Positions 26,907 through 36,888 of a stretch of 64,000 nucleotides of DNA are shown piece by piece. Under the pieces are notes generated by a model that saw nothing but the letters and a program-made list of their open reading frames with translations, did no database searches and was not told where the DNA came from. The DNA comes from Candidatus Thorarchaeota archaeon (GTDB lineage Archaea; Asgardarchaeota; Thorarchaeia; Thorarchaeales; Thorarchaeaceae), in NCBI GenBank assembly GCA_029855935.1, contig JAGSHN010000031.1, positions 64,001 through 128,000 on the forward strand, given 5' to 3'. Each line of letters opens with the position of its first letter. Position 1 is the stretch's first letter. The position numbers and the translations under genes are program-made.

Positions 26907-29531
26907 TTGCTCATAGTTCAGGACACCAAAACCAATGATGTCATTCGTATCATCACAGTTGACGCACTCGTGCAGCTCGGCGAGGTCCGGGCAGGCAAAC
27001 ACGTCAGGAGATTCGACCCTCAGAGGCTCTTGGGATATTTCCGTGCGGTCAATGATCACCTGCTCAGCTTCGCGAGCAGGTACGGCGATGCCTATCGGTA
27101 TCTCCCCCTTCGCAACCGCCCGAATCCATCTGCGGCCCCATTGATTGGCGATTTGTATGAGGGTACAACCGATATTGCTCGTAGCTGGCTGGTGGACCTC
27201 TTTCTCGTGGCGCCTCTTGTGAAAGTGGGGGACATTGTACTACCTTCGAACCAGCAGACATCCAACGTACGCCTGGCCAGAAACTGGTGCCTGATGTCAC
27301 AGCACTCGTCACGACTCTACGTCGCTCAAGACCTCCGACAGGGACGGGTAGATGACCCCGGCTGGGTCACCTTTGTGACAGCCTCTGATCTGTCTGGCGG
27401 GCACAGCAGCATCAGTACCCGAGCATTGACCACAGCGATAGAGAGGAACAGTCCGCTCATAGTCTCGCTGAGTGGAACAGAAGACGTCGACACACTACTG
27501 GAATGGCTCGTTAGGCTGAGAGAGGGTCACGCCGACACGCCACGGCTGATGTTTCACATTCGCTCATACGAGGAGTGGGAAGGATCCATCGGGAGACTGC
27601 TCGACATTCCAAAGTCAATGCTGCTGACAAGCGGAGCGACCATCACACGCCTGTCAGAGGTCATCAGATATCTACGTAGGCACGACGGCGGAGACTGGTC
27701 CCGCAGACTCGTCTTCGCAAGCGCCTATCCTGAAACTCAATCGGGTGACAGCATTCCCGAGATCCTGAGTTTTCTGCTGAGCAAGAGCCTTTCAGCGACT
27801 CCACTGGACCTTCACAGAATTCTGGGTGGAAATCTGCTGGGAATGCTACCACCACGGCCCACATTCCTCAGACTTGCGGACTCAAAGGCGTCGGTGGTAA
27901 TGGAAGCCACACTCGGCCGGCTGGGACTACGCGAGATAACGAGATTTCTCAAGGTACTTCTCCGTGGCGACCGTGTGGGCCTAGTCTCAGTGGACTTCAT
28001 GGTGACGAAGGAGGGCCGGGTGTCAACCTCAGATGCTGTGCTGACACTTGCGGACATCTACGAGAGCACAGCAAGGGCCTTCGCCCTGTGCACAGAGAGG
28101 GATGGCACCTTGATAGCCACAGGATGGCGTGGTTCGTTTGAGGAGGTTCTAGAGGAACGGGACGATGACACCTTCAGGACAATAGTACGTTCCACTGCGT
28201 CATCAGAGGCAACAGTGTTCGACTCTCCAGCCCATCTCAACCAGCTCGGAGCGATGCTCGTGCGTTTCCTTGGGCTGTCGGAGGCCAATGCCGTTCTCTC
28301 AGCACTTCACTACAGAGTCAGCGTGCGGCACAGCTCACCAGGCATGGTATTGATGGCACCCGAGGACCTCAGCGCACTCGGAATAGCCAGCGGCGAGAGA
28401 GCAATCATACTTCACAGTGGAACCCGGCAGTGGTGGGGAGGCACTGTCAGAGAACTCAACACGATTCCCAGGCATGAGGTCGGCATAAGTGACAGAGAAG
28501 CGGGCCTCTTCGGCGCGAATGAGGGCACCTCTGTCGATGTCGTTAGATGTCAGATGACACCACAGACATTGGAGGAGCTCGTCATCGGTTTTGAGAGAAG
28601 CGACGGGCACGTATCGATCGAGGATGATGCCTACCTGTACATGCATCATCAGGCAATTCGGCAGCGACTGGAGGGGGCAATGGTTGGCATCGGCACGCGC
28701 CTCAATGTCTTTCCGACCGACACCACGATTAGGGCCTCAGTCATCGCCACTGAGCCGCCGTTGATGCCCGGTCAGCTTGGGAGAGTCACTGAAGAGACCC
28801 GTATCCAGACGGTCCCGGTCCCGCTGCTTCGCGAGATGAACGTGGTCCTATGTATCATCAGCCATGGACATACCAGTGAGGCCACCCTCCCTGTGGAGGA
28901 TCCAATGTCAATAAGACGACGCCTCGAGCCGCTTCAGCAGGTGGTCCCCAGGTTCTCTGAGATAGGCGAGAGGATAGAGCGTACGGTCGACCGCCGCAGC
29001 GCGACCGTCATAGCCGGGTTGCTAATCCTCTCAGCCCTGAGTCAGAACCGTTCGCAGGGACGCTTGGCTCTCATTCGCGGGGGTGAGCGTGTCGAGAGAT
29101 TCGGAATACAGAAAGGGCAGTTGGTGAAGCATTTTGCAGAATTCGAAGATGACCTCTCCACACAGGAGATACTGCACTCAATCGTGGCCTCTATCGTGGA
29201 GTTGGCCGGGGGGCAGGACACCTACTCTCCGGACGAGGACTTGTACCAGGCCATCGCCGAGACCCTCTATGAGATGGGCGATGATATGCCGACAATGGTG
29301 ATCGTACTGTCCGACACGAGGCCCAATCCTAGCGATGATGCCGAGGTGTTCCTCCGTGCCATTGCAACGCACAAGAGATACACGATAGACTGGTTGACGC
29401 TCGGGGCTGAGGAGCAGCCAACGCCGGGAGAACGGCTGATGAAACTGATCAACAGCAGGATATTCGTGCTGGCGCAGCTCTCTGCTCGGGAGATCTTGGC
29501 CTATCTCCTGACCGCGGTACAATACCGATGA
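26907..29531 (+). CDS. Multidomain protein: degenerate amidohydrolase barrel, Cdc48/NSF-N-like domains and vWA-like domain
   Basis: RLVFASAYPE...RILGGNL (Amidohydro_2-like); MAPEDLSALGIASGERAII / GISDREAGLFGANEGTSVDV (double-psi barrel); NVVLCI..RLALI..MVIVLSD..WLTLG (vWA). Confidence 0.55.
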   Translation: MLIVQDTKTNDVIRIITVDALVQLGEVRAGKHVRRFDPQRLLGYFRAVNDHLLSFASRYGDAYRYLPLRNRPNPSAAPLIGDLYEGTTDIARSWLVDLFLVAPLVKVGDIVLPSNQQTSNVRLARNWCLMSQHSSRLYVAQDLRQGRVDDPGWVTFVTASDLSGGHSSISTRALTTAIERNSPLIVSLSGTEDVDTLLEWLVRLREGHADTPRLMFHIRSYEEWEGSIGRLLDIPKSMLLTSGATITRLSEVIRYLRRHDGGDWSRRLVFASAYPETQSGDSIPEILSFLLSKSLSATPLDLHRILGGNLLGMLPPRPTFLRLADSKASVVMEATLGRLGLREITRFLKVLLRGDRVGLVSVDFMVTKEGRVSTSDAVLTLADIYESTARAFALCTERDGTLIATGWRGSFEEVLEERDDDTFRTIVRSTASSEATVFDSPAHLNQLGAMLVRFLGLSEANAVLSALHYRVSVRHSSPGMVLMAPEDLSALGIASGERAIILHSGTRQWWGGTVRELNTIPRHEVGISDREAGLFGANEGTSVDVVRCQMTPQTLEELVIGFERSDGHVSIEDDAYLYMHHQAIRQRLEGAMVGIGTRLNVFPTDTTIRASVIATEPPLMPGQLGRVTEETRIQTVPVPLLREMNVVLCIISHGHTSEATLPVEDPMSIRRRLEPLQQVVPRFSEIGERIERTVDRRSATVIAGLLILSALSQNRSQGRLALIRGGERVERFGIQKGQLVKHFAEFEDDLSTQEILHSIVASIVELAGGQDTYSPDEDLYQAIAETLYEMGDDMPTMVIVLSDTRPNPSDDAEVFLRAIATHKRYTIDWLTLGAEEQPTPGERLMKLINSRIFVLAQLSAREILAYLLTAVQYR

Positions 29532-29600: not shown

Positions 29601-29978
29601 ATGAACGAGAGCGAGGTTCCTATCGAGTTCCAGTTTGAGGATGGACAGGTATTGAGAGCCGTTCTCGATGTGGTCAGGGCCCCGCAGATTGTTGATGCAA
29701 TCAGGCACAGGCTGCCCCTTGAATCGAGAACAGTCCTTGTGAGAAACGAGATGAAGATACCGCTGGATATTTCGAGGGGGAATCAGAAGCCAACCCACGA
29801 GGTCAAGGCTGGCGACATAGCATATATGCCTCTTGGCGACTCGCTCTGTATCTACCTCGCGGACATGCGCACCTTCAGCCCAGTGAACGTGATTGGAAGA
29901 GTCAGAAGCATCGACAACCTGGATATGCTAAGGCACCTTCGCCGGGGCGCAAGGGTCACGGTGAGGCTGAGCGAATGA
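29601..29978 (+). CDS. Cyclophilin-like fold protein (TM1367/DUF369-like)
   Basis: AP..VDAI...LP, V.AGDIAY.P.G..LCIY, SPVNVIGR. Confidence 0.85.
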   Translation: MNESEVPIEFQFEDGQVLRAVLDVVRAPQIVDAIRHRLPLESRTVLVRNEMKIPLDISRGNQKPTHEVKAGDIAYMPLGDSLCIYLADMRTFSPVNVIGRVRSIDNLDMLRHLRRGARVTVRLSE

Positions 29979-30080: not shown

Positions 30081-30632
30081 CTATATCCTTTGCAGCGATC
30101 GCAGGAGCTCTCTTGTCTCCGAAGACTCACGCGGTACTGGGTCAACGACTATACCTGGCTCGTATGTTTCGATGATGACCTCTACGCCTGAGTCGCGTAC
30201 TCGCTTGAAGCCTCTCTTTGACAGGGCACGTACAGTCAGCGTGGTAGTGTCGAATTGTGTCTTCCCCGTCGCCTGCCCCACGGCTGCATCATGCCTGAGC
30301 CGACTTCTCAACATTCTGACCTGTTCTTTCAGCTCGGCAACGCGGACCTGAAGCTCGTTTCTCTCCTCTGTCACGCGCCGCTCGGCCTCAAGCAGCGCCT
30401 CATAGTCCTTCATCGGGACAAACTCCTCGCTTCGATCGATCCAATACACTGTTGTGCCGTCTTGTCGGCGCCTGGTACGTACGAGCCCGAGAGCCCTCAA
30501 TACTGCAATGACATCATAGACTCGCCGCTTGGGGACGCCTATCGTCAGGGCAATAATGTCACTCCGGATGCCCTCGTCCCCGCACTCCTTTATGAGACTG
30601 ATGCACTTCTGGGCCAACTCAACGAGCTTCAC
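30081..30632 (-). CDS. E2F/DP-like winged-helix transcription factor with coiled coil
   Basis: LAQKCISLI...IALTIGVPKRRVYDVIAVLRALGLV...VYWI matches the E2F/DP DNA-binding domain; heptad ERNELQVRVAELKEQVRMLRSRL follows; GTG start at 30632 with GAGGTG SD. Confidence 0.8.
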   Translation of the reverse strand: MKLVELAQKCISLIKECGDEGIRSDIIALTIGVPKRRVYDVIAVLRALGLVRTRRRQDGTTVYWIDRSEEFVPMKDYEALLEAERRVTEERNELQVRVAELKEQVRMLRSRLRHDAAVGQATGKTQFDTTTLTVRALSKRGFKRVRDSGVEVIIETYEPGIVVDPVPRESSETRELLRSLQRI

Positions 30633-30728
30633 AGTTGCACCTCGGTGGAGAATCCTGCATGATCTCATATGGAGAGAAGGTGGTCCCCCTACTGCCGAAC
30701 TCTGTCTTAAGTGTTTGTATTATCCTGT

Positions 30729-30785
30729 CGATTTTTCGCGGTTCCGATTTTTCGAGAGGCGTATTCGGCCCACTGTGGCGCGAGA
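30729..30785. promoter_or_regulatory. Direct repeat and E2F-like sites in a divergent promoter region
   Basis: CGATTTTTCG at 30729-30738 and 30745-30754; TTTTCGCGG at 30733-30741; TGTGGCGCGAGA at 30774-30785. Confidence 0.45.
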
Positions 30786-30863
30786 TAGCAGCACCGACAA
30801 TTTGATAACATACAGTCAGGGGCCGTCAGTTGCTTGAAACGCAACAGAGCGGCGGCGATAGTG

Positions 30864-32198
30864 ATGAAAAGAAAGAGAGTAATCATAATGGGTGCTGCTG
30901 GCCGAGACTTCCACAACTTCAACGTGTACTTTCGTGACAACGAGGAGTACGAAGTTGTGGCCTTCACGGCAGAACAGATCCCCGGAATAGAGGACAGAAT
31001 CTATCCCCCTGAACTCTCCGGAAGACTGTATCCTGAGGGCATCAAGATATACCCTGAGGAGAAACTGCCCGAACTGGTCCAGAAGTATCAGCCAGAGCAG
31101 TGCATTCTTGCGTATTCCGACCTGTCGCACATAACGGTCGGACATAAGATAGCGTGGGTGAACTCCCTAGGCCCCGACATGCGTCTGATGGGGCCGACGA
31201 CAACTATGCTGAAGAGCAAGAAACCGGTCATTGCTGTATGTGCCATCCGGACAGGCTGCGGAAAGAGCCAGACCTCACGCAGAGTCAACAAGATACTCGT
31301 AGATATGGGGCTCAAGCCAGTCAATGTCAGGCATCCCATGCCCTACGACCCGGATCTGACCACACAGATAGCGCAGAGGTTCGAAACACTGGAGGATATG
31401 GACAGGTACCGCTGCACGATTGAAGAGCGGGAGGAGTATGAGCCCATGATAAACATGGGTGTCGTGGTCTATGCTGGGGTGGACTATGCAAAGATCCTTG
31501 AGCAGGCGGAGCAAGAGGCAGACATCATCACATGGGACGGCGGAAACAACGACTTCCCCTTCTACAAGCCCGACCTGCTCATCACGGTCGTCGATCCGCA
31601 CAGGGCCGGTCACGAGGTGACGTATTATCCGGGTGAGACCAATCTCAGGATGGCGGACGTGATCATAATCAATAAGGTCGAAACCGCCGACTATGAGAAC
31701 ATAGAGAAGGTCAGACGGAATATCGAGGCGCTCAACCCCGATGCTGTGGTCATCGACGCAGCCTCACCAGTCCGTGTCGAGGACATAAGCGTCATCAGAG
31801 GCAAGCGTGTGCTCGTCATCGAAGATGGCCCGACAGTGACCCACGGTGAGATGCGGTACGGCGCGGGCTACATTGCCGCTCGCAAGGCTGGTGCCACGAT
31901 TGTTGACCCACGGCCGTATGCGGTGGGCAGCATACGCGACACCTTCGAGAAGTACCGCCATCTTGAGAATGTCCTGCCAGCAATGGGTTACGGTGCCGAG
32001 CAGATGAAGGAACTTGAGGAAACAATCAACAAGGCGGATGTCGACGCCGTTGTAGTAGGTACTCCAATCGACTTGACCCGCATAATCAAGATCAACAAGC
32101 CCTCCACGAGAGTGCGCTACGATCTTCAGGAGATTGGAAGACCAGATCTTGAAGATGTCGTCAAGGAGTTCGTGGAGAAGCACGGGCTCGTCAAGTGA
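30864..32198 (+). CDS. COG2403 P-loop protein (cDPG-synthetase-like family; probable arginine synthetase ArcE type)
   Basis: GAAGRDFHNFN, RTGCGKSQTSR, RHPMPY, EEREEYE, WDGGNND, EDGPT.THG, LPAMGY. Confidence 0.75.
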   Translation: MKRKRVIIMGAAGRDFHNFNVYFRDNEEYEVVAFTAEQIPGIEDRIYPPELSGRLYPEGIKIYPEEKLPELVQKYQPEQCILAYSDLSHITVGHKIAWVNSLGPDMRLMGPTTTMLKSKKPVIAVCAIRTGCGKSQTSRRVNKILVDMGLKPVNVRHPMPYDPDLTTQIAQRFETLEDMDRYRCTIEEREEYEPMINMGVVVYAGVDYAKILEQAEQEADIITWDGGNNDFPFYKPDLLITVVDPHRAGHEVTYYPGETNLRMADVIIINKVETADYENIEKVRRNIEALNPDAVVIDAASPVRVEDISVIRGKRVLVIEDGPTVTHGEMRYGAGYIAARKAGATIVDPRPYAVGSIRDTFEKYRHLENVLPAMGYGAEQMKELEETINKADVDAVVVGTPIDLTRIIKINKPSTRVRYDLQEIGRPDLEDVVKEFVEKHGLVK

Positions 32199-32409: not shown

Positions 32410-34080
32410 ATGAGCGTGCACTATCCGATACTTGTCAGCGGACAGGAGAGAGACACCGGCCACTATACGATATTCCCAGACATGGATAGGGTGATTGAGG
32501 ACCCGGGTCTGGCGATAGCGTTGCAGCTACGCGATGCCTCAGCAGGTCAGCGACTGTCATTCAGGTGGCTGCCATTCCTCATCCCGCGCTCCGCCCCGGA
32601 GTTGCGATATCTGCGCGACTACCGAAGAGCACATGGAGTACCCAAGTACGGAAAGAGCGAGCTAGACGAGGTGACCTTCGCCAAGGTCTCACTGGCCCGT
32701 GACAGCGACATCGATGACGCACTCGCCACGGGAGTGAGGGATCATCTGAGTCTCTTCAACCCGTTCCGTGTTGACGGCATGGGTGTGACCCTCGACGAGC
32801 GGGTCGATGCACTGTACCGTGCAGGTCTGGCAGTCAAGAGGGAGTTCAGACAGATACGGGAGATCTCCGTCAGAGAGGGGGTGCCCATCAAGACCTTCGA
32901 GTGGACGTGGAAGATGTTCACCGAGTATCTTGAGAGAGAGACCTTCAGTCTCTGGGCTGAGGCTCTGGACGTCTTGGAGAGGCCCGGTAGGGACGGGGGG
33001 AGAAACTACAGGTTCAGAGAGCCGTACGGTGTGACATGCCTGTTCACGCCATACAACTCGCCGCTCGCATTGGGTATCCTCAGTATCACCTCCTCCATTC
33101 TCGCTGGAAATGCGACGATACTGAAGCCACCGAGCAAGGTGCCACTGAGCACGATTGTCCTCGGCCGGATAATGCTAAGCTCCTTTCTAGAGCAGGGTCT
33201 TCCGCCAGGCATACTTCAGGTCCTGACAGGGGGCGGAAAGCGGATGATGAGACGTTTCCTCTCCGACCCGCGTACGGGAGCTCTAGTGTGGTATGGTGAC
33301 AGCTCAACCGGCATCGAGTTATGGGCCGAGGCCATAAGAAGACGAATTCAGATGGCACCGGAGCTGGCAGGTAGCGATGCGTGCCTCGTCTGGGGAAGGG
33401 ATGTCGACCTCGAGAGAGTGGTACAGATCATTGTCAGGGGCCGCTTCCTCGGCGGCGGTCAGGCCTGCATGGCGATAAAGCGCGTTCTTGTCCAGCGAGA
33501 GCTGCACGATGACCTGATTGATCTCCTAGTGGAGGAGATCTCACATCTGAAGATGGGACGACCCTCCGACCCAGAGGTAGATCTACCGCCGCTGGGACTC
33601 ACAGCGCTGTACCTTCTGCTCGACCAGATGGAGGATGCCAGGGCCAGGGGCGCAGATGTAGTCACAGGAGGATACCGTTGCAACTTCCTTGGGGAGCCAG
33701 ATTCTGCCGGACTCTTCTATGCACCCACAATCATCAGAAATGTGACACTGGAGATGCGCGTGATGCGGGAGGAGGTCTTCGCGCCAGCCCTGCCAGTGAT
33801 GAGTGTGGACAGCGTGGAGCAGGCTATCGGGATTGCGAATCAGTCCAGATACGGCCTGCGCGCATCTGTGTTCACGGACGATGAGAGAGTCAGGGCCAGA
33901 TGGATCAAGGAAGTACAAGCGGGAGGGATAATAGTCGAACAGGACCATCTCTACTTCGATCCTCACATGCCGCATCTGGGCGGCTACAAAGACTCCGGAA
34001 TAATCGGTGCAAAGTACTTTCCAGTGATGCTCACTCGAATGAAATACGTACATACGGGACCGGGCGTGTCACCACTATGA
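32410..34080 (+). CDS. Aldehyde dehydrogenase family protein with N-terminal insertion
   Basis: REPYGV, PYNSPL, LKP, ELAG, GQAC (catalytic Cys), EEVFAP, YGL.ASVFT, GGYKDSG. Confidence 0.9.
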   Translation: MSVHYPILVSGQERDTGHYTIFPDMDRVIEDPGLAIALQLRDASAGQRLSFRWLPFLIPRSAPELRYLRDYRRAHGVPKYGKSELDEVTFAKVSLARDSDIDDALATGVRDHLSLFNPFRVDGMGVTLDERVDALYRAGLAVKREFRQIREISVREGVPIKTFEWTWKMFTEYLERETFSLWAEALDVLERPGRDGGRNYRFREPYGVTCLFTPYNSPLALGILSITSSILAGNATILKPPSKVPLSTIVLGRIMLSSFLEQGLPPGILQVLTGGGKRMMRRFLSDPRTGALVWYGDSSTGIELWAEAIRRRIQMAPELAGSDACLVWGRDVDLERVVQIIVRGRFLGGGQACMAIKRVLVQRELHDDLIDLLVEEISHLKMGRPSDPEVDLPPLGLTALYLLLDQMEDARARGADVVTGGYRCNFLGEPDSAGLFYAPTIIRNVTLEMRVMREEVFAPALPVMSVDSVEQAIGIANQSRYGLRASVFTDDERVRARWIKEVQAGGIIVEQDHLYFDPHMPHLGGYKDSGIIGAKYFPVMLTRMKYVHTGPGVSPL

Positions 34081-35441: not shown

Positions 35442-36260
35442 CTATTGCCCAGCAGTGATACGTCTATACACGGAGTCCATCACGCGTCGCGCAAACTCTT
35501 GGTCGTCCTTGAATGCCCAGGGAATGGAAAAGAACTCCTTGCGAGCCTGCTCAATGGCCTCCCTGTCTCTGTTGATGAGTGCCTTGAACACAAGCTTGGT
35601 CCAGTTGAAGCACGGATGCCTATGGAACTCCTCTATGAAACCCGATGTCCCGGCCACGCGCTTCAGATACTCAACACCGTCTTTCGGGCGGCCAAGCATA
35701 AGGTCCGATAGAGCGCCGAGGCACGCAAAGACCACGGCATTCTTCACGATGCCAGACGATATGTATTTCTCAGCCCCCTCCTTGTACTCTTGGGCCTTCT
35801 TCGCATAGAGCTGGCGCCCGTCTAGAATGTGTATGTCAGTGGGGATCTCCTCCCGCTCAACACGCTTGAGTCCGCCGCCACTCAGGATTGCGGCCTTCAA
35901 CTCCGCCTGCATCATTCGCATGTCCGCATCCTTCTGGAGCGCCCTAGCCGTATCGACTATTCTTCGACCCGCATCAACGAGTCGGGCCTTGATTGTGGGG
36001 TCGACCAGAGCGGGATCATTGCGGGCCACGCCGTTCTCGTAGACAGTACGAGCATATCTGAACAGCTCGTAGGCACGTGTTGTCAGGTTCTTCTCAAGTG
36101 CAAACTCCACGCCTTCAAGTATTGCAAGGATGGCGTTGTCGGTCTCACCCAAGTTCTCAAACTGTGTTGCCGCCTCAATGAGCCAGAGGAGCGAGTCTGT
36201 GCTCTCAGCCTTGATGAGCCCCTGACCCTTCGCTAGGGAACTGTAGGCGTCAATACACAT
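35442..36260 (-). CDS. All-helical TPR-like protein resembling SNAP (NSF attachment protein)
   Basis: 272 aa of helical hairpins; C-terminus GALSDL...F...PCF...KAL..RD.EA...KEFFSI resembles the alpha-SNAP C-terminal bundle. Confidence 0.5.
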   Translation of the reverse strand: MCIDAYSSLAKGQGLIKAESTDSLLWLIEAATQFENLGETDNAILAILEGVEFALEKNLTTRAYELFRYARTVYENGVARNDPALVDPTIKARLVDAGRRIVDTARALQKDADMRMMQAELKAAILSGGGLKRVEREEIPTDIHILDGRQLYAKKAQEYKEGAEKYISSGIVKNAVVFACLGALSDLMLGRPKDGVEYLKRVAGTSGFIEEFHRHPCFNWTKLVFKALINRDREAIEQARKEFFSIPWAFKDDQEFARRVMDSVYRRITAGQ

Positions 36261-36492
36261 CACTGAACGATCTGTCTTTGTGCACTTGGCAGCAACCTCT
36301 CCCTTGGGCAGTGCCACATTTCTCAGGCCGCAAGAGTACTGTGAACCGCTGACTCTAAGCCAAGAACAATACTCTTGTGACTCCAACGGGCCAACACCAA
36401 CTGAAGCGTGTGAACATCGCCTAATAAACAAATTCAGCTGTACCGACAATCTTAACTTAGCAGAATAGAGCGTCGACCGCGGGGTCGACACA

Positions 36493-36888
36493 ATGGACGA
36501 TGACGACGCGGAGCTCGCATCAATCCGGCGAAAGAAGATGCTACAGCTTATGGAGAGAGAGAAGCGGCTCCGAGAACAGCAAGAACGCGAACAGAAGACC
36601 AAGGAAGAGAGAACGAAGCTGCTCCAGAGGTTTCTCGCACCAGACGCACAGGCGTATCTGAGCTCCCTGAGAGAGAGAGAGCCGACTGTTGCAAAGAGAA
36701 TAGAGGATGTGTTCCTTTATCTGATAGTCTACCGTGGACTCAGACAGATATTCAGCCAGATTGACGTGATGTACGTAGAGCGCCGAATAAAGGGCGAGGG
36801 GCCACGCATTCGTGTCCAGCGCGATGGTGAGATCTCAGACTTTAGTTCCTACGTGAGAGAGGCCCTACAGAAAGACTCTGACAAGTAG
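36493..36888 (+). CDS. PDCD5-related dsDNA-binding protein
   Basis: DAELASIRRKKM.QL...LLQRFLAPDA...L..L....P..AKRIE. Confidence 0.8.
   Translation: MDDDDAELASIRRKKMLQLMEREKRLREQQEREQKTKEERTKLLQRFLAPDAQAYLSSLREREPTVAKRIEDVFLYLIVYRGLRQIFSQIDVMYVERRIKGEGPRIRVQRDGEISDFSSYVREALQKDSDK

Follow-up and report, generated by a model that had tools for sequence, protein, structure and literature searches.

An E2F/DP-type winged-helix protein of Thorarchaeia with a conserved coiled coil and a candidate marked-box-like domain

In eukaryotes, S-phase entry is governed by a central switch made of the E2F/DP transcription factors and Rb. We analysed a gene of the E2F/DP family located at positions 30081-30632 (minus strand) of a 64,000 nt stretch from a Candidatus Thorarchaeota archaeon (assembly GCA_029855935.1, contig JAGSHN010000031.1, positions 64,001 to 128,000; hereafter the window). 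A first-pass annotation made from the sequence alone had read this gene as encoding an E2F/DP-like cell-cycle transcription factor. E2F/DP homologues of Asgard archaea are described by Eme et al. 2023 (Nature 618:992) in Supplementary section 4.1.5, 'E2F/DP', they correspond to arCOG02749, and a 2024 review also reports E2F homologues in Asgard genomes (PMC7617429).

The supplement of Eme et al. 2023 describes the DNA-contact residues as conserved in the Asgard homologues, as we also observe, and states that these homologues are without a dimerisation domain. The table of eukaryotic signature protein (ESP) sequences in the same supplement (supplementary file 5) holds an entry labelled E2F/DP, Thorarchaeia_A361..ILBNFCAC_02611. 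This entry was located through three peptides covering 47 of the 183 residues of our protein, and it is identical to it over the full length save for the start residue (M for GTG). The family and this exact protein are already published, so that the novelty implied by the first-pass annotation is lost and an Asgard E2F/DP relative is, as such, not new. The ESM Atlas cluster of the family is also automatically named 'E2F/DP family winged-helix DNA-binding domain-containing protein'. An archaeal forerunner of E2F/DP bears on the origin of the eukaryotic cell cycle, and that forerunner is part of the published record; no evidence in the present analysis ties the protein to the cell cycle. Beyond the literature, we report as leads a coiled coil followed by a probable marked-box-like module, a conserved promoter word and a conserved cyclophilin-like neighbour. 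The last two were not found in the available part of Eme et al. 2023.

An E2F/DP-type winged helix

The interval 30081-30632, stop codon included, encodes 183 amino acids from a GTG start, and the peptide quoted in the first-pass annotation is encoded there exactly. The open frame extends to 30668 and would yield 195 amino acids if read from the ATG at that position. This extension is not conserved. Because the starts of the orthologues coincide with the GTG at 30632, with GAGGTG standing ahead of it at 30638-30643, we retained the 183-residue product. Its AlphaFold2 model, with a mean predicted local distance difference test score (pLDDT) of 86, comprises a winged helix (residues 1-64), a long helix (74-115), four strands (132-165) and a C-terminal helix (171-182).

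Residues 1-66 (30435-30632, minus strand) match the Pfam family E2F_TDP (PF02319) with a score of 36.4 bits (E = 4e-9) against a gathering cut-off of 25.7, far beyond chance, and a six-frame search of the whole genome with the same profile scored this gene at 38.3 bits. In an alignment of 26 diverse members of the family, G21, R36, R37, Y39 and D40 are invariant, as is the tryptophan of the wing, W64. The recognition motif reads KRRVYD in the window (30513-30530, with the RRVYD part at 30513-30527 on the minus strand), and E2F_TDP is the sole Pfam family matched by all 26 members. A search of all PDB sequences with the family profile returned E2F8 (2e-12), E2F4 (2e-7) and DP2 (7e-3), with nothing else below an E-value of 0.01. 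Even at E < 10, no winged helix other than those of E2F/DP was present in this search, the other rows being coiled-coil or helical chains aligned over the coiled coil. Profile-profile comparison (hhalign) with a small alignment of eukaryotic E2Fs gave a probability of 98% (E = 2.7e-13) over 114 columns. A phmmer search of 1.8 billion representative proteins retrieved 42 proteins, including four eukaryote-type E2Fs, one of which passes the cut-off of the Pfam profile E2F_CC-MB, the coiled coil and marked box (CC-MB) module. Sequence identity with eukaryotic E2Fs amounts to only about 30%.

The structural model has a winged-helix fold. Residues 1-60 have pLDDT values of 88-95, and comparison with E2F4 (1cf7_A) gave a template modelling (TM) score of 0.77 by target and a root mean square deviation (rmsd) of 2.1 Å, with 31% identity, the highest identity among the structure matches. 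In E2F4, the segment aligned to the RRxYD motif reads KRRIYD. Foldseek against the PDB and VIA-align in its wide setting, both run with the whole model, returned generic winged-helix proteins with E2F4 1cf7_A among them; this was to be expected, since the winged-helix fold alone cannot separate families in such searches. Residues 1-66 form a genuine winged helix of the E2F/DP type, bearing the RRxYD base-contact motif, and are no TrmB look-alike. The E2F-like DNA-binding domain with RRxYD and wing tryptophan, as proposed in the first-pass annotation, is thus borne out by a profile score above cut-off and by the invariance of both motifs.

Of 301 sampled Asgard genomes, 124 have a match to the family model; they represent 35 of 70 genera. 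In the family to which the window belongs, 68 of the 76 genomes are matched. Several large Asgard families had no match among the genomes searched (0/68, 0/28 and 0/21). At least one apparent absence is a contig break, as genome G131 carries residues 54-182 at a contig end. Most matched genomes have a single copy, and a few families have two. Some Asgard lineages encode short forms (such as P0136 and P0145) that pass straight from the winged helix to the beta domain and lack the coiled coil. Two E2F_TDP genes are present in certain genomes (G044, G053, G061, G148, G181 and G235 are those named for short forms or two genes). Heterodimers are conceivable in the genomes that carry two E2F_TDP genes.

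Coiled coil and beta domain in the second half of the protein

Residues 74-115 (30288-30413, minus strand) are predicted to form a coiled coil of five heptads, with L80, V87, L94, L101 and L108 at the d positions. The AlphaFold2 helix has block-mean pLDDT values of 85-97 in this region. Conserved hydrophobic heptads at positions a and d are the signature of a parallel coiled coil. Within residues 77-112, the a and d positions are hydrophobic in 46-96% of the 26 members, most other positions reaching 20% at most; L, I, V, M or F is present in 92-96% of members at the d positions 80, 94 and 101, and in 77-92% at the a positions 84, 98 and 105. The a position 91 is the exception, being a conserved basic residue. 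The hhalign alignment to eukaryotic E2F continues past the winged helix into this coiled coil, and all long-form members possess both the coiled coil and the beta domain. The heptad leucines noticed in the first-pass annotation are real. Whatever the origin of the beta domain, a conserved coiled coil does not fit the statement of Eme et al. 2023 that these homologues lack a dimerisation domain, and where the long form is concerned that statement is probably mistaken.

The coiled coil is followed by a four-strand beta domain (residues 129-166; 30135-30248, minus strand), a candidate for a compact marked-box-like module. Residues 68-183 were folded alone (mean pLDDT 85) and the resulting model was used for a structure search. 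The top five of 350,542 PDB chains ranked by Foldseek were 2aze_B (E2F1), 5tuv_B (E2F5), 5tuu_B (E2F4), 5tuv_E (E2F5) and 2aze_A (DP1); all are E2F/DP CC-MB chains, with full-length alignments of 104-118 columns. With VIA-align, E2F/DP CC-MB chains were the only rows covering both the helix and the strands. Language-model features point to the same family. For residues 84-195 of the longer frame, the nearest named ESM Atlas clusters were E2F_CC-MB (0.76); for the beta domain alone (126-195), E2F_CC-MB was again nearest (0.78 and 0.76), with nine of the ten best hits from the same family; and for the C-terminal part of a relative only 37% identical, taken from the representative set at 50% identity, it was nearest at 0.75-0.76, all of these scores lying below the 0.9 under which the authors of the tool speak of leads only. 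Given this shared architecture, and given that two unrelated methods single out one rare family, we consider homology of the second half to the CC-MB module of E2F/DP somewhat more probable than not. Of the E2F-like order proposed in the first-pass annotation, the succession of winged helix, coiled coil and beta-rich domain stands; homology to the marked box is suggested by first ranks in both methods, with no significant score.

The protein ends 17 residues after its last strand. These residues include a conserved C-terminal helix (residues 171-182; 30087-30122, minus strand), supported by the family alignment and by AlphaFold2 (pLDDT about 71). In the family alignment, most of the Thorarchaeia-type proteins close with this helix, of consensus E.E.LL+sLQR[IL], which could serve as a docking peptide.

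The genome of the window is 97% complete and holds a single E2F_TDP copy. Neither the DP dimerisation profile (PF08781) nor RB_A had a match in it, and the matches to RB_B and Cyclin_N, located in frames of about 320-365 amino acids, all stayed below threshold. Sub-threshold RB_B matches were also obtained in control archaea and in a control bacterium, and Cyclin_N matches in one control archaeon and one bacterium. The short C-terminal end agrees with the first-pass remark that no Rb-binding tail is present. With one E2F_TDP copy and no DP or Rb in the genome, a homodimer is likely, as the first-pass annotation had reasonably supposed. We propose that this member of a known family probably acts as a coiled-coil homodimeric DNA-binding regulator. 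Two identical chains would very likely pair through a parallel coiled coil, their beta domains would pack on each other in the manner of the E2F and DP marked boxes, and the two winged helices would read a short CG-containing DNA site through RRxYD, the protein serving as a transcription regulator. The beta module or the C-terminal helix might in addition dock a partner, for which the cyclophilin-like neighbour described below is the obvious candidate, though such docking is doubtful.

Upstream word, paired-word locus and neighbouring genes

In 24 Thorarchaeia orthologues, the products of which share about 47-58% identity, we compared the sequence upstream of the gene. A core promoter block is common to them, located in the window at 30705-30723 (minus strand), made of ATAATACAAA at 30714-30723 and a TATA-like CTTAAGA at 30705-30711. 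Its consensus in the 24 promoters is A[TC]AA[CT]ACAAAC followed by a TATA-like TTAAATA, and the block is partly kept in a second Asgard family. The sequence ATAAYACAA has 11 occurrences in the whole genome. The block is separated from GGGGTG and the start codon after it by a 5′ leader of about 70-90 nt whose sequence is not conserved; no consensus RNA pairs were found in this leader.

Just upstream of the block lie two copies of a word that form a candidate operator (30729-30755, minus strand), with TCGAAAAATCG at 30745-30755 and CGAAAAATCG at 30729-30738. Allowing at most two changes, TCGAAAAATCG is present in 22 of the 24 promoters, 83-136 nt (mostly 99-117) before the start. A site just upstream of the TATA block is the typical position of an archaeal activator. 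The 10-mer CGAAAAATCG has six occurrences in the 2.97-Mb genome. In 41 genomes of the family, the TCGAAAAATCG 11-mer was found 132 times versus 19 for the reversed control (sevenfold), and at least 17 of these genomes have one copy ahead of the E2F-like gene, on the same strand. The intergenic length to the divergent COG2403 gene varies from 197 to 296 nt, and the word is kept where COG2403 is not the neighbour (L032), indicating that it belongs to the E2F-like promoter. In Thorarchaeia, the E2F-like protein may thus target TCGAAAAATCG upstream of its own promoter and regulate itself, a tentative proposal suggested by the position of the word. A tandem pair of the word, 16 nt apart, was also observed away from the E2F-like gene in two genomes of one genus (G069, contig C5, 125340/125356; G170, contig C462, 2001/2017); this is the spacing found in the E2F-like promoter of the window.

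The window also holds two near-matches to the canonical E2F site, TCTCGCGC at 30778-30785 and TTTTCGCGG at 30733-30741, which are not conserved in a sister genome. In Asgard families other than Thorarchaeia, the region ahead of the E2F-like gene is without the A-tract word. In these families, the E2F-type words TTTGGCGC, TTTGGCGG, TTGGCGCC and AAGGCGCC often occur within 200 nt upstream of the E2F-like gene (loci L002, L043, L044, L048, L050, L053 and L055). The genomes concerned are AT-rich, and at several loci the word is the sole one of its kind in 3-6 kb. The pattern W[TAG]GGCG[CG], which was chosen post hoc and is a lead only, reaches 2.9 per kb in the upstream 200 nt of these other families versus 0.55 per kb across the loci (about fivefold); in Thorarchaeia promoters it is not raised (0.8 per kb against a background of 1.3-1.6).

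A second locus carries the TCGAAAAATCG word. Of the 41 family genomes, 11 have a pair of copies separated by 520-680 nt in a low-GC stretch poor in open reading frames (ORFs); the pair is inverted in eight cases and points in the same direction in three. In the genome of the window (G000), the copies are at 32955 and 33563 of contig C29, the interval 32955-33573 corresponding to positions 506-1124 of locus L066; loci L057-L065 also show the arrangement. The arms of the paired locus extend to TTTCGAAAAATCGAcAGgt..TGAGTGA, and a conserved centre of about 160 nt with inverted words lies between the copies. Nine RNA pairs can be drawn in this centre, with almost no covariation, and the locus has no Rfam match. 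An origin, a non-coding RNA and a repeat-flanked element are the candidates for this locus. An origin linked to orc1/cdc6 was considered and rejected: the adjacent gene of 442 amino acids encodes an AAA_14/DUF4143 ATPase, orc1/cdc6 is on another contig and the GC skew is flat.

Tail-to-tail with the E2F-like gene lies a gene for a cyclophilin-like protein (29601-29978, plus strand; Pfam PF04126, TM1367-like, E = 7e-15), which matches PDB entries 1zx8 and 2ka0 at about 5e-8. Convergent genes are not co-transcribed. This arrangement is found in 28 of 28 Thorarchaeia loci, with aligned ends 7-109 nt apart. Nine further Asgard families also have this gene beside their long-form E2F-like gene, in convergent orientation in seven of them and on one strand in two, even though their E2F-like proteins are only 28-35% identical to that of the window. 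Loci L003-L033 and L044-L056 cover the Thorarchaeia and these families together. Loci without the cyclophilin-like neighbour mostly encode short or divergent E2F-like forms in which only the winged helix aligns. PF04126 is widespread, being present in 215 of 301 Asgard genomes. The copies beside the E2F-like gene score E = 1e-9 to 1e-16, far from the 1e-35 to 1e-47 of the canonical copies elsewhere in the same genomes, and they therefore constitute a separate divergent subfamily. Seven of the eight family genomes that lack an E2F_TDP match also lack a PF04126 match. Adjacency preserved across such evolutionary divergence suggests a functional link, possibly that of a partner protein.

On the other side, a COG2403/CobW-like gene (30834-32198, plus strand, 454 amino acids) is divergent from the E2F-like gene. 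Its product is similar to cyclic-diphosphoglycerate synthetase, is about 76-87% identical across Thorarchaeia genera and has no NCBIfam match. It is the divergent neighbour in 25 of the 28 Thorarchaeia loci and not in the other Asgard families. Besides this COG2403/CobW-like GTPase, the neighbours in the window include ABC transporter parts, a HEAT-repeat protein, an aldehyde dehydrogenase and an RsmB-type methyltransferase. Two long open frames, 26907-29531 (plus strand, 874 amino acids) and 35442-36602 (minus strand, 386 amino acids), have no Pfam or NCBIfam match.

Alternative readings and comparison with known systems

A more far-reaching reading, somewhat less likely than not, is one in which the long forms carry a true, compact homologue of the CC-MB module and in which the whole architecture would have been present in the archaeal ancestor instead of arising by fusion in eukaryotes. 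The ancestor would have been a homodimer, E2F and DP being two copies of one self-pairing protein; the cyclophilin-like protein would be a partner, and the protein would act on its own promoter through the operator. If the CC-MB-like module is true, the history of the family shifts from a eukaryotic domain fusion to the inheritance of a whole module, then its duplication. Several results weigh against this reading. The Foldseek scores of the five CC-MB chains are weak (E = 0.24-2.8, TM 0.23-0.43, rmsd about 10 Å), and the Atlas method is uncalibrated on parts of proteins. Comparison of the C-terminal half with eukaryotic CC-MB by hhalign, using two alignments in local and global, strict and greedy modes, gave a probability of 0.7%; the greedy alignment pairs the strands in order, which is statistically meaningless, and an attempt at a deeper eukaryotic profile recruited almost only fish E2F4/5, of low diversity. 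The Pfam profiles E2F_CC-MB and DP, which the first-pass annotation had named as a check, have no match in the protein, in the 26 members or in the genome, leaving the closeness of the C-terminus to CC-MB as one of rank, by Foldseek and by language model. On the promoter side, the E2F-like protein is a putative binder of TCGAAAAATCG. A genome scan with a weight matrix for the word gave few further high-scoring sites, none before a recognisable gene, and hence no regulon. TTTSSCGC is not enriched upstream of genes (14 occurrences in 1,832 regions of this genome versus 9-28 for matched controls). Finally, two family genomes (91% complete) possess the paired locus with no detectable E2F-like gene, by which binding of the word by the E2F-like protein is weakened, not excluded.

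It is on balance unlikely that homology to E2F/DP stops at the winged helix, the coiled coil and beta domain being an unrelated, lineage-specific addition and eukaryotes having gained CC-MB separately. This is the position of Eme et al. 2023 in section 4.1.5, and it agrees with the negative profile comparisons just given and with the existence of short forms such as P0136 and P0145; moreover, an architecture as simple as a long helix with some strands could evolve more than once. However, two unrelated methods place E2F/DP CC-MB first, one among 350,542 PDB chains and the other among all named Atlas clusters, the language-model rank persists when the beta domain is taken by itself or when a distant family member is used, and both the domain order and the short distance from wing to coiled coil are those of E2F. 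We regard as quite improbable a reading in which the protein is not mainly a promoter-bound factor and uses TCGAAAAATCG to organise or mark a site on the chromosome, for instance an origin, a partition site or some other structural locus. Most copies of the word in each genome do lie at two places, the promoter of the gene itself and the ORF-poor locus, where two inverted copies about 600 nt apart flank the conserved 160-nt centre, and a few members give weak matches over the coiled coil to YabA, ZapB and DivIC, proteins of cell division or of replication, in Pfam and, in one case, to GpsB in NCBIfam. However, the latter matches reflect generic coiled-coil similarity, the paired locus is away from orc1/cdc6 with an uninformative GC skew, and the putative link between protein and word has to accommodate the two genomes in which the paired locus exists and no E2F-like gene is detectable.

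The two remaining alternatives concern the winged helix itself. That the protein is a generic archaeal regulator of TrmB, MarR or ArsR type with a chance R.YD-like helix is highly improbable. Some homologues are indeed named TrmB by JGI, and the Pfam TrmB profile (PF01978) matches over the recognition helix and wing with 21.7 bits. This is, however, under its cut-off of 25.6, and the NCBIfam TrmB model (NF040851) gives 12.2 bits against a cut-off of 600, whereas E2F_TDP is above its own; the eukaryote-type E2Fs retrieved by phmmer match TrmB just as weakly, which makes the cross-match uninformative. Likewise, the family profile found no other kind of winged helix in the PDB, and the fold as such does not discriminate families. 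The first-pass concern that TrmB-like hits might outrank E2F_TDP is not supported by these scores. E2F/DP was long held to be a eukaryote-only family, which would speak for contamination by eukaryotic DNA, for a chimera in the contig or for recent transfer out of eukaryotes, but the probability of such an origin is negligible and we consider it refuted by conserved gene order. The GC content is even over the window (0.54-0.60), the neighbours are prokaryote-type and intron-free, a three-gene order is kept in at least 25 Thorarchaeia genomes, and the breadth of the family among Asgard genomes (124/301, 35/70 genera) goes with an identity to eukaryotic E2Fs of about 30%. With even GC and gene order conserved across 28 Thorarchaeia loci, the contig is not the chimera against which the first-pass annotation had warned.

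Returning to the E2F/DP-type regulator that we favour, the conserved upstream word offers a concrete probe for DNA binding, and the cyclophilin-like neighbour, as a candidate partner, seems to have escaped notice so far. To our knowledge, Thorarchaeia have not been cultured, and it therefore matters that these points can be tested with recombinant proteins.

Among known systems, TrmB (PF01978) shares a winged helix with the Asgard protein, at a sub-threshold match, and its C-terminal sugar-binding domain is absent here. DP1 and DP2 (PF02319 + PF08781) have a matching RRRVYD helix, with an E-value of 0.007 that is weaker than that of the E2F match, and their dimerisation profile is not matched. 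E2F7 and E2F8 (4YO2) provide the best PDB match to the family profile (2e-12) and, as predicted for the Asgard protein, function without DP; however, they carry two winged helices per chain and no coiled coil, whereas the Asgard protein has one winged helix and a coiled coil.

The typical E2Fs (E2F1-6; PF02319 + PF16421; 1CF7, 2AZE, 5TUU and 5TUV) show the same order of RRxYD winged helix, coiled coil and beta-rich domain. The coiled coil starts about 10 residues past the wing in both, and the winged helices of E2F4 and of our protein are 31% identical. In contrast, the Asgard protein is about half the size, with a shorter beta domain devoid of significant sequence similarity; it has no DP partner and no transactivation or Rb-binding tail, in a genome without Rb; it is likely a homodimer instead of a heterodimer; and the word upstream of its gene in Thorarchaeia is not TTTSSCGC. 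The Asgard E2F/DP homologues of Eme et al. 2023 are the same family, and the protein analysed here differs from their description by its conserved coiled coil and its candidate CC-MB-like beta domain.

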